10,980 bases of DNA from Candidatus Hodarchaeota archaeon (GTDB lineage: Archaea; Asgardarchaeota; Heimdallarchaeia; Hodarchaeales; Hodarchaeaceae): assembly GCA_029856365.1 (NCBI GenBank), contig JAHQWW010000127.1:1-10980 (forward strand), written 5' to 3'. Shown one piece after another: positions 5,086 to 10,980 of the stretch. Under the pieces are notes generated by a model. It was not told the origin of the DNA. It made no database searches and saw only the letters and a program-made list of their open reading frames with translations. Each line of letters opens with the position of its first letter. The stretch's first letter is position 1. A program made the position numbers and the translations under genes.

Positions 5086-8000
5086 GTGCATCACCTTAAG
5101 AAAACCTTTCAATATTTTTTCATTTGTTTTTTTTTCCTAAATATTCTTCTGAACACTATTCCACTCCATGAAGAAGAGTTTTTCAGGTCCAATGAGTTCG
5201 GGGCTAAATTTTTAAGGGGATTTGGACTCATGGAAGAGCATAATAAGACCTATCAAACCATACCTCGCCTTTTAGGTACCTCTTCAATCCATTCCCAATC
5301 TAACTCCTCTCACCTTAACGGAATTCATTTAAGGATATCGGATTATTTTATCCCAGGGTGGGCTGATACACGCTTTAGCTATAGAAAGAATATTACGATA
5401 GATAAAACGCAGGTAAGTGGAAGCTTGACCAATTTTCCTGTACTTATCGATCTATACGACCCTGATTTGCAGAATGATGCCCAAGCAAGTGGTAACGATA
5501 TTTTATTTACAAATGCTGCAGGACACCTTTTAGATCATGAAATTGAGCATTATAATCGAGTTTATAACTCTACTCACGCCCACTTAGTTGCTTGGGTGAA
5601 AACAAATCTATCAATTACAGAAAATACAATCGTTTCAATGTATTATTGTAATCCAACTATTGGAAACCAAGCGAATCCTGAGAATGTATGGGATTCCCAC
5701 TACGAAGGCGTTTGGCATCTAAAAGAGAGTGGTTCTGGAGATGCAGACGAATATTTAGATAGTTCTTCGAATAATAATGATGGACAGGGTGGATCAGGAG
5801 CATCAAGTTATATACCAACTCAAACAGATGGACTCATTGGGAAAGCTCAAGATTTTGACGGAACAGATGATTATATTGATTGTGGTAATGATGAAACTTT
5901 GGATATAACTGGAAATGAAGTGACTGTAGAAGCTTGGGTACAGCTGCAAGAAGATGTACCACCTCAATGGGGAACTGGAATTGCTGGTAAAGATGATGAA
6001 TATTATCTTTTCCAAGACTACGATGGCAATCGTAAATTTACCTTTTCTGTAAGGACTTCTTCCAATGTTTGGGTGAGTTCTGCAAATAATCAACTCAATA
6101 CATGGTATCATGTTGTGGGAACTTATGATGGTGTAAATGCAAGATTATTCATTAATGGTGTACAAGCAGCTAATCTGCCACATTCTGGATCCATTGCTTC
6201 GGATATAGGATCATTTGCAATTGGACTTGGAGATCAAGAATTTGATGGTCTAATAGATGAAGTTAGAATTTCAGATATTGCACGTACTACAGAATGGATT
6301 CAGACTGAATATGAAAATCAAAATGATCCAAACTTTTTCTATTCGGTAGAACAAAAAGAAAGTTCACCCAACTACTGGGCTTTCCCTACGTTTAGATATC
6401 GAAAAATAATCACAATCGATTCCAATAAAGTGAGTGGAGACTTAATTAATTTTCCAGTACTCATTGATATTAGCCACAGCGACCTTAAAAACGGTAAACT
6501 TCAGGCTGATGGAGATGACATTATCTTTACTGACGGAAGTGGGTCAAAACTAGATCATGAAATAGAATTTTTCAAACAAAACAGCTCTCAAGGGCATTTA
6601 ATTGCATGGGTAAGAGTACCAAGTCTATCTAGTGCGAGTGATACCAATATTGCAATGTATTATGGAAATCCTGCAATCATCAGCCAAGAAAATCCAGAAG
6701 GTGTTTGGGACTCAAACTATCAAGCTGTTCATCATATGGAAGAATTCCCTACTTTAACTCTGTATGATAGCACAAGTAATAACGAAGATCTTTCTCCCCA
6801 AGGATCTCTGACATCAGAGGATCTAGTAAATGCACAAATAGGTCAAGGAATTGATTTTGATGATGTTAATGAAGACGGAGCTGTTAGTACTAGTACTATT
6901 AGAATTGAGAATTTTACAATTTCTGCCTGGATAAATCCCGATACTGTTACAGATGATTGGGATTGTGTTGTAAATTTAGGACATATGGAGGGGAGTTGGA
7001 GGTGGGTTGGATTGAATTATGGTGAGTTCGTAATTAATGATGGAAATACTTATTCATTTGGTTCAGCTTTATCTTCAGATACATGGCATCATATTCTGGT
7101 AACTTATGATGGTTCTACTGTAAGAGGTTACGTTGATGGTTCATTTGAGGATTCTTATTCTAAGAACTGGGGTCAAATCACATATAGATTTCAAGTAGGA
7201 GCATTTGCATATGATGCTTCTTACAATCTCGATGATCACTTTGATGGAATTATTGATGAAGTTCGAATTTCCAACACTGCTCGATCCCTTGATTGGATTA
7301 ACACTTCGTATACAAACCAATTTGAACCCAGCAGCTTCTACTCGGTAGAGAATGAGGAAGAATATTCTGACTGGTGGGCTGATAGTTCGTTCAGACATCG
7401 AAAAAACATTGTGATTAATAAAGAAAATGTTGCTGCAGATCTCACAAATTTTCCTATTCTGATTGATATAACTGATAGCGACCTTAAAAGCGGAAAGGTT
7501 CAGTCTGATGCCGATGATATACTATTTATTGATCAGACTGGAGCAAAATTAGATCATGAAATTGAAATCTTTCAACAAAACAACTCTCAAGGACATTTGA
7601 TTGCATGGGTAAGAGTACCGAGTCTTTCTAACATAAGTGACACCAATATCACCATGTATTATGGGAATAATGCTGTTGGAACTCAAGAAAATCCAGAGGG
7701 TGTGTGGATTGATTATGTGGGTGTTTGGCATTTATCAGAAGCTTCAGGAGATGCGGACGATTCAACTCAATATGATACAACGGCAACAGCTTCAAATATG
7801 AATTATCAAGCAACAGGAGTAATAGGTTATACATTTAATTGGGAAGAGGCGTCTAGGTTGAGTATGGGTGCTCCTGCTGACGGTCACCTTGATTTTGGAA
7901 CAGGAAATTTTACCATTAGTATGTGGATCAATATAGATGAAGACACTGGCAGTAGTCAATATTTTATGTCAAAAGGAGCACGATTCTCAACTGATATCGG

Positions 8001-10980: not shown

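Follow-up and report, generated by a model that had tools for sequence, protein, structure and literature searches.

The stretch of DNA analysed here (the window) comprises 10,980 nucleotides (nt) of Candidatus Hodarchaeota archaeon, a member of the Asgardarchaeota, and carries parts of two large genes, gene 1 and gene 2, of a family of giant surface proteins. It is the entire contig JAHQWW010000127.1 (C158) of a metagenome-assembled genome (MAG; GCA_029856365.1, here G000) of 4.24 Mb in 204 contigs, 83.6% complete with 4.2% estimated contamination, and no DNA of the assembly lies downstream of it. Both genes are on the forward strand. Gene 1 (1..4317) is the back half of a family member, with 1438 amino acids (aa) visible, and is truncated at its 5' end by the contig start. 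Gene 2 (5086..10980), our main subject, is the front part of a family member, with 1965 aa visible, and is truncated at its 3' end by the contig end.

Gene 2 opens with a GTG at position 5086, placed immediately after an in-frame TAG and preceded by GGAGAG 7 nt upstream, and stays open for 1965 codons up to position 10980. As the contig itself stops there, the open 3' end has a technical cause, and a track of open reading frames (ORFs) that requires a stop codon misses a gene whose frame runs off the contig. An earlier, sequence-only reading had reported at least 1965 stop-free codons from a GTG start and their absence from the ORF track. Both observations hold: no stop lies in this frame within the contig, and 5086..10980 is a real coding gene, with Pfam domains and a partial orthologue (P0070, 83% identical, from another Hodarchaeales MAG and truncated in the same region). 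The N-terminus (5086..5166) passes from basic residues into a hydrophobic, signal-peptide-like segment and aligns with the N-termini of paralogues; that on contig C147 likewise opens on V just after a stop. About 30 residues past this segment (gene 2 aa 59-66, window ~5260-5290) stands a motif, (I/V)PRLL(G/S), which recurs in most genes of the family that carry a head (contigs C158, C147, C135, C155, C136, C5 and C23) and might serve as a signal for processing or sorting.

Four tandem head modules, each composed of DUF2341 and a laminin G-like (LamG; Laminin_G_3) domain, occupy 5347..9405 (aa 88-1440), where Pfam recognizes Laminin_G_3 (2.6e-67) and DUF2341 (1.4e-34) four times each. Their boundaries (5347-6381, 6382-7374, 7375-8391 and 8392-9405) were set by the recurring motifs W-A-D..F-x-x-R-K and D-E-V-R-I-S. 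An ORF of 102 aa antisense to the first LamG module (5803-6111, reverse strand) is most likely a chance frame. The heads are followed by an insert of 325 aa (9406..10380, aa 1441-1765) and by a neck module of 187 aa (10381..10941, aa 1766-1952). The neck occurs in nine genes of G000, always immediately ahead of a stalk of repeats, and that of gene 2 is 44-60% identical to the necks of the eight paralogues and of many homologues. The last bases before the contig end (10942..10980) encode the first 13 residues (NHPPIIENLTLSP) of stalk repeat 1, a unit of ~95 aa. Gene 2 therefore shares with the family both a signal peptide followed by DUF2341 and LamG heads and a neck directly before the stalk. 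Pfam found nothing significant in the neck, insert or N-terminus of gene 2, in the stalk or tail of gene 1 or in a small ORF between the two genes, and PHROGs gave no match below E 0.018 for the insert, the neck or the small ORF.

The insert is present in only one copy in G000. Its AlphaFold2 model, built from a 15-sequence alignment, reached a pLDDT (predicted local distance difference test score) of 91.5 and a pTM (predicted template modelling score) of 0.92, and displays three tandem jelly rolls packed into one compact body. Only four representatives of the PDB matched it with Z >= 8, all aligning across the whole model: a single-chain APRIL-BAFF-BAFF (4zch_B, Z 11.1), a single-chain C1q globular head (5hzf_A, Z 10.9), the Cbln1 C1q trimer (5kca_A, Z 10.3) and a single-chain adiponectin (4dou_A, Z 9.7). 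Over these four C1q/TNF chains 288-293 residues aligned, with a root mean square deviation (rmsd) of 4.7-5.0 A and an identity of 6-9%, and Foldseek concurs (TM-score 0.41-0.46). Taken singly, a roll is also similar to the fibre tip of Bdellovibrio (Z 7.8). The viral fold library returned phage C1q-like and triple-jelly-roll capsid proteins at modest TM-scores, and the ESM Atlas led to unnamed, mostly viral clusters; these matches fit the fold call and say nothing about function. The insert is thus predicted with high confidence to form a single-chain C1q/TNF-like pseudo-trimer, with three jelly rolls around a threefold axis. No Pfam family matched it at E <= 1, so it has no Pfam C1q/TNF membership, and the modelled likeness to C1q/TNF proteins would be one of arrangement at the level of the fold, with no homology implied. 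In a full scan of 1.84 billion representatives, only 122 relatives of the insert were found at E <= 1e-3, which makes it a rare family; some are stand-alone proteins of ~310-400 aa, one of them named as a hypothetical protein of Chloroflexota/SAR202.

Gene 1 begins within the stalk, of which ~10 diverged repeats of ~95 aa are visible (1..2901). The repeats start with N-x-x-P and contain D-x-D-G-D, W and DG motifs, some of them Asp-rich and calcium-site-like. A profile made from them gave 10 matches (8 near-full-length) in gene 1 and 2-56 matches in other large ORFs of G000. Tandem Repeats Finder detected no DNA-level repeats in the window; the stalk repeat has no Pfam match, and a PDB sequence search with the profile returned chance hits only. 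Next comes a pre-transmembrane (pre-TM) module of ~240 aa (2902..3615), conserved between the stalk and the transmembrane (TM) helix in all complete relatives, for which Pfam offers weak Big_7/CBM-like hints only. A hydropathy peak marks the TM helix (3652..3735, aa 1218-1245), which is residues 25-49 of the structural model of the tail. The cytoplasmic tail (3736..4314) consists of juxtamembrane helices and a domain of the longin fold that carries a GP motif (FFDQRHGPIP, aa 1284-1293) and an ARGG motif (aa 1357-1360). N-glycosylation sequons number 25 in the ectodomain of gene 1 and 2 in the tail, and the 27 of the whole protein compare with 16 +/- 3.6 expected by shuffling. This enrichment, together with the acidic and Ser/Thr/Asn-rich composition of the ectodomain, fits a glycosylated surface protein.

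From the window alone, paralogy of the two genes cannot be demonstrated. BLASTP between them yielded a single similarity of 15 residues, 8/15 identical (gene 1 residues 432-446), with an E value of 0.39, which is no better than chance. The sequence-only reading had taken the last visible residues of gene 2 as matching the repeat starts of gene 1; the match is present, and it acquires meaning only through bridging sequences. The last 276 nt of gene 2 are 87% identical to contigs C147 and C135. On C135 the neck runs straight into six stalk repeats that match the gene 1 profile, the first of which begins NHPPIVENLTLSP, and C135 residues 2047-2059, homologous to the end of gene 2, are the start of stalk repeat 1. 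The continuity of neck and stalk on C135, combined with this DNA identity, places the end of the window exactly at the start of stalk repeat 1. Compared with the head genes of C147, C135 and C155, gene 2 is 37-41% identical in the heads and 51-61% in the neck.

The complementary pieces, head and neck in gene 2, stalk, TM helix and tail in gene 1, are joined in complete relatives that hold head, neck, stalk repeats, pre-TM module, TM helix and tail in a single frame, and these bear out the earlier claim that gene 2 is a paralogue of gene 1. Two are found in G000, on C199 (1293 aa) and C119 (1186 aa). Within the same genus they include a protein of 3687 aa with four heads, a neck, 17 stalk repeats, the pre-TM module and the tail in the single-contig genome G255, two proteins in G101 (4342 aa with 22 stalk repeats and 3381 aa with 17) and one of 4204 aa with 23 stalk repeats in G138. 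Further complete relatives include P0038 and P0072-P0076, and there are many more among database proteins from Hodarch-, Heimdall-, Thor-, Odin- and Promethearchaeota-labelled MAGs. Relatives were found by searching with the insert and neck of gene 2, a search blind to the tail. All insert-bearing relatives with a complete C-terminus (11/11) end in a tail of the gene 1 type, which is carried by insert-bearing P0072-P0077, P0033, P0046 and P0041 and by the insert-bearing 3381-aa gene of G101. P0086 (2989 aa) has eight stalk repeats and then an end that looks out of frame, and P0010 (1873 aa) starts within a stalk and continues into pre-TM module and tail on a contig of the same size (41934); they probably represent two pieces of a single ~4850-aa gene, interrupted within the repeats by a frameshift or an error of assembly.

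The length of the full protein can be bracketed in two ways. Joined to any other 5'-open fragment of G000, gene 2 would encode about 3050-4080 aa; with the 17-23 repeats of the complete genes of the genus it would reach about 4000-4600 aa. The most likely size of the protein is about 3300-4600 aa, with over 10 stalk repeats, in line with the earlier estimate of over 3000 aa, and the visible part would be roughly 45-65% of it by length.

The tail was examined in an alignment of 27 tails, from genus to phylum level. G84, F90, Q92, G95, P98, D118, F126, R163, G164, G165 and E167 are invariant and correspond to the motifs FDQ..GP.P and ARGG.EN; within the GP motif G95 never varies, and conservation of P96 is at least 90%. 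An AlphaFold2 model from this alignment (pLDDT 82, pTM 0.71) shows the TM helix, two short helices and a longin core of the order beta-beta-alpha-beta-beta-beta-alpha-alpha. The GP motif falls in the beta1-beta2 loop, where strand 82-91 gives way to strand 95-102, and RGG is found in the beta4-beta5 loop, by topology at the same edge of the sheet. An exhaustive structural search ranked a Lokiarchaeal roadblock-longin protein first (8yqg_B, Z 12.7, rmsd 3.0 A over 140 residues), followed by GATOR1 (NPRL2/3; 8fw5_B, Z 11.0), the Lst4 longin (4zy8, Z 10.6), FLCN (6nzd_H, Z 10.3), C9orf72-SMCR8 (7o2w_A, Z 10.3), the SEA complex (8adl_S, Z 9.9), DENND1A (6ekk, Z 8.7) and ordinary longins such as TRAPP, COPI zeta and VAMP7 (various entries, Z about 7-8). 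The best Foldseek matches are FLCN-FNIP2 complexes.

Longins of GTPase-activating proteins (GAPs), namely FLCN, NPRL2, SMCR8 and C9orf72, are marked by a GP motif before beta2 and an arginine finger, which set them apart from other longins, including the DENND proteins, which are devoid of the GP motif (PMC12290439). Soluble Asgard 'FLCN/SMCR8-type' longins share both features (PMC12290439). By its predicted structure the tail is an FLCN/NPRL2/SMCR8-type longin, resembling the segment of human folliculin by which Rag GTPases are turned off. The label uDENN given to it by the sequence-only reading is right as a superfold, uDENN being itself a longin fold, and can be narrowed to this type: the tail is nearer to the Lokiarchaeal roadblock-longin, NPRL2/3, Lst4, FLCN and C9orf72-SMCR8 (Z 10-12.7), Pfam finds no DENN domain, and the chain ends two helices past the longin core, with no cDENN or dDENN. 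The Pfam Folliculin family is weakly touched by 5 of the 27 tails, the more distant ones (best E 0.013); in G000 only a soluble protein on C9 passes its cut-off, and the tails on C52 reach 17 bits.

Neither gene is alone in its genome. G000 holds nine neck-bearing genes, six truncated and three complete, and ten membrane-anchored FLCN-type tails, of which five belong to 5'-truncated genes (the one on C90 breaks off inside the tail as well) and one is degenerate. Contigs C147, C135 and C155 share the layout of the window, a 5'-open gene with TM helix and tail, a spacer of 290-450 nt and a 3'-open head gene. The junction of a tail gene with a head gene therefore occurs four times in G000, and once in a sister genome (G249:C108), which carries the tail closest to that of gene 1 (79% identity). 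Other complete genes fetched from genomes of the same genus are solitary. For G000 this supports a tandem array of family genes, as had been proposed, with the window as one of its junctions. In pairwise comparisons among ten complete proteins, heads are 27-49% identical or without detectable similarity (one close pair reaches 70%), necks 36-71%, pre-TM modules 29-58% and tails 34-66%, and the tail is usually the most conserved of the four modules. Paralogous heads contain from zero to six LamG modules, with or without the insert, and heads vary more than tails, in keeping with the variable heads on a common stalk and tail suggested earlier.

The neck-stalk boundary behaves differently from the heads at the DNA level: window 10705-10980, C147:11203-11478 and C135:11274-11550 are 87% identical, whereas the heads are ~40% identical in protein, which suggests gene conversion or recent exchange in the stalk. 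The contig of the orthologue P0070 also ends within the neck. Assemblies probably break at this boundary because the DNA of paralogues is 84-87% identical there; the stalk repeats themselves were considered as the cause of the break and rejected as too diverged, there being no DNA-level repeats. In the spacer of the window, which measures 768 nt, lies an ORF of 99 aa (4336..4635, forward strand) with no Pfam or PHROG match; it has a 68%-identical paralogue at G000:C78:16528-16782 and no match in the spacers of the other junction contigs.

Building on the gene, its domains, the architecture of the family, the fold and motifs of the tail and the paralogue counts as established above, the explanation that we favour, with a probability of about three in four for the whole, is that gene 2 encodes the N-terminal part of a giant type-I surface glycoprotein, a member of an Asgard-wide family whose tail would dock or regulate a GTPase. 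Members follow the order signal peptide, variable head, neck, a number of stalk repeats, pre-TM module, one TM helix and cytoplasmic longin tail, and gene 2 would most likely end in the same FLCN/NPRL2/SMCR8-type longin as gene 1. The heads would bind glycans or the surfaces of partner cells far from the membrane, and the tail, with its GP and Arg-Gly-Gly motifs, would dock or regulate a small GTPase of the Rag/Arf family on the cytoplasmic side of the membrane, probably in the form of a longin dimer. In this manner contact at the surface may be coupled to the state of the GTPase. The 3' end of gene 2, the type of ligand and the GAP or other signalling activity are the parts of this explanation that we infer.

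Several points weigh against it. The TM helix and tail of gene 2 would lie outside the assembly and are deduced from relatives, and in a BLAST comparison of 400 nt from either end of nine candidate contigs with G000, no contig end overlapped C158. A minority of neck and stalk proteins bear a different tail (C5 in G000, and P0094/96/97). The tail in the window has no Pfam match, remaining below the Folliculin (PF11704) cut-off, and no sequence match in the PDB, where profiles from two alignments returned chance hits only. A catalytic role of R163 (R1358 in the visible gene 1) as an arginine finger, equivalent to R164 of FLCN, R78 of NPRL2 and R147 of SMCR8, is suggested by its position in the modelled loop only. 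Finally, no GTPase gene lies within the window, and the one Rag-type neighbour of the family, on C136, could be due to chance, given 32 small-GTPase matches in the genome.

That neighbour is a gene for a Gtr1/RagA-type GTPase (Pfam 92 bits; G000:C136:6206-7135, reverse strand), ~490 nt upstream of and divergent from a head gene (7627-12912, forward strand; locus L055); the GTPase gene is followed by one for a 1020-aa HEAT/TPR protein. Gtr1/RagA-like GTPases are many in G000, and of the roughly 13 family loci in the fragmented assembly a single one has such a neighbour, so the neighbourhood was judged a weak hint that carries little weight as functional evidence. Elsewhere in G000, a soluble homologue of the tail of ~183 aa is encoded at C49:5473-6030 (forward strand; profile E 1.6e-26). 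It includes the juxtamembrane helix and keeps the GP motif without the Arg-Gly-Gly, which recalls the pairs of catalytic and non-catalytic longins of eukaryotes, and by this analogy it is a candidate non-catalytic longin partner comparable to FNIP, NPRL3 or C9orf72.

The main rival, which we hold to be possible and somewhat unlikely, is that the family is purely structural or adhesive, forming a surface coat or cell-cell adhesin, and that the longin tail only anchors, sorts or oligomerizes the protein, for instance through a link with the cytoskeleton or a partner longin, and that no GTPase is controlled in response to a ligand. Lectin-like heads on giant repeat stalks are indeed typical of adhesins, longins are often modules of dimerization or docking (the best fold match, 8yqg, is a dimer), and the absence of a GTPase gene from the window suits this view as well. 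Asgard cells, moreover, show many complex surface proteins and no S-layer (PMC9834061). A passive anchor would, however, not need the conservation of GP and Arg-Gly-Gly observed across 27 tails from genus to phylum, all the more since GP and Arg are the two motifs that separate GAP longins from other longins, and since the tail is usually the most conserved module.

A second alternative, which we regard as very unlikely, grants gene 2 a stalk followed by another type of tail, or by no cytoplasmic domain at all, in which case it would not be a true paralogue of gene 1 at its C-terminal end. A second tail type, unrelated in sequence to the FLCN-type tail, does exist on neck and stalk giants: C5 (G000:C5:1442-22093, reverse strand; 6884 aa, 56 stalk repeats), C23 (24138-29309, forward strand) and P0094/96/97, with further cases on C7, C120 and C45. 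The six truncated heads of G000 also outnumber its five truncated FLCN-type tails. The proteins with this second tail that were seen, however, have a single LamG head, whereas the FLCN-type tail is present in every complete multi-LamG relative examined, as it is in the 11 insert-bearing relatives whose C-terminus is complete. Similarly doubtful is the suggestion that the four junction contigs represent one locus from different co-binned populations and not a tandem array, which the fragmentation and estimated contamination of the MAG and the 82-87% DNA identity of C147, C135 and C90 over the stretches compared might favour, since the protein identity between the C158 tail and the tails of C147, C135 and C155 is no more than 60-62%, the heads differ in module number and the insert is on C158 only, single-contig and higher-quality genomes of the genus hold up to nine tail matches each, and a tandem pair of family genes is visible on every single junction contig.

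If the favoured explanation of a GTPase-regulating surface glycoprotein is taken one step further, the family may be a receptor-coupled GTPase switch in the archaea most closely related to eukaryotes. Engagement or clustering of the lectin and C1q-like heads would bring the FLCN-type longins into pairs, among themselves or with a soluble paralogue that lacks the Arg, and so switch a Rag/Arf-like GTPase at the plasma membrane; the family would then represent a pre-eukaryotic, surface-wired ancestor of the folliculin, GATOR1 and C9orf72-SMCR8 modules. We offer this extension tentatively and consider it rather improbable as a whole. Were it true, a tandem array in which the heads are swapped from gene to gene would feed several inputs into a single output.

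Nutrient and lysosome signalling in eukaryotes is under the control of longin-domain GAPs (folliculin, GATOR1, C9orf72-SMCR8). It was only in 2025 that soluble relatives from Asgard archaea, sharing the GP and Arg motifs, were pointed out (PMC12290439), and that study never mentions transmembrane forms of these longins. In the family described here, a domain of the GAP-longin type is hard-wired to the cytoplasmic side of giant lectin-headed surface proteins, which are multiplied in tandem with different heads. It provides a testable candidate for the coupling, in Asgard archaea, of surface contact with syntrophic partners or glycans to small-GTPase machinery of the eukaryotic type, and its members may be some of the 'complex surface proteins' seen by cryo-tomography. 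The window adds an array junction and an unusual head, in which four LamG modules are combined with a C1q/TNF-like trimer that is naturally a single chain. It also illustrates how assemblies systematically break genes of this family at the neck-stalk boundary, with the consequence that gene callers report halves; family proteins stand in public databases as hypothetical or DUF2341 proteins. In the literature searched, no fusion of FLCN-type longins with giant surface proteins is described. The present analysis contributes the domain map of gene 2, its C1q/TNF-like insert, the bookkeeping of paralogues and the recognition that the 13-residue cue at the contig end needs bridging sequences.

Among known systems, FLCN (with FNIP), NPRL2 (in GATOR1), SMCR8 (with C9orf72) and yeast Lst7/Lst4 share the longin fold with the tail (Z 10-11 over 127-141 residues), as well as GP at the beta1-beta2 loop and a conserved Arg in a neighbouring loop. 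Unlike these eukaryotic GAP longins, the tail longin is the C-terminal ~190 aa of a giant single-pass surface protein, is not followed by a DENN or C-terminal domain, and has no match at the level of Pfam or PDB sequences. Also similar are the soluble Asgard FLCN/SMCR8-type longins (PMC12290439) and Lokiarchaeal 8yqg, the best structural match, from the same phylum and with the same GP and Arg motifs; those proteins are small and cytosolic, whereas the tail longin is anchored in the membrane behind a huge ectodomain. DENN proteins (uDENN of DENND1A, 6ekk) share the longin fold at a Z of 8.7, below the GAP-longin group, and differ in having cDENN and dDENN domains and in lacking the GP motif that the tail possesses (PMC12290439).

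On the outer side of the membrane, the model of the insert aligns over its whole length with C1q/TNF trimers, both the engineered single chains (4zch, 5hzf and 4dou) and Cbln1 (5kca), with the difference that the three jelly rolls of the insert are naturally carried in one chain. As whole proteins, the family members recall bacterial adhesins of the RTX/Bap type and eukaryotic LamG receptors such as neurexins and FAT cadherins, with which they share lectin-type heads, a long stalk, here of ~95-aa beta-rich repeats, and a single anchor. That anchor, however, is a type-I TM helix with a longin tail, which none of these giant adhesins and receptors is known to have, and the likeness to them is one of architecture.

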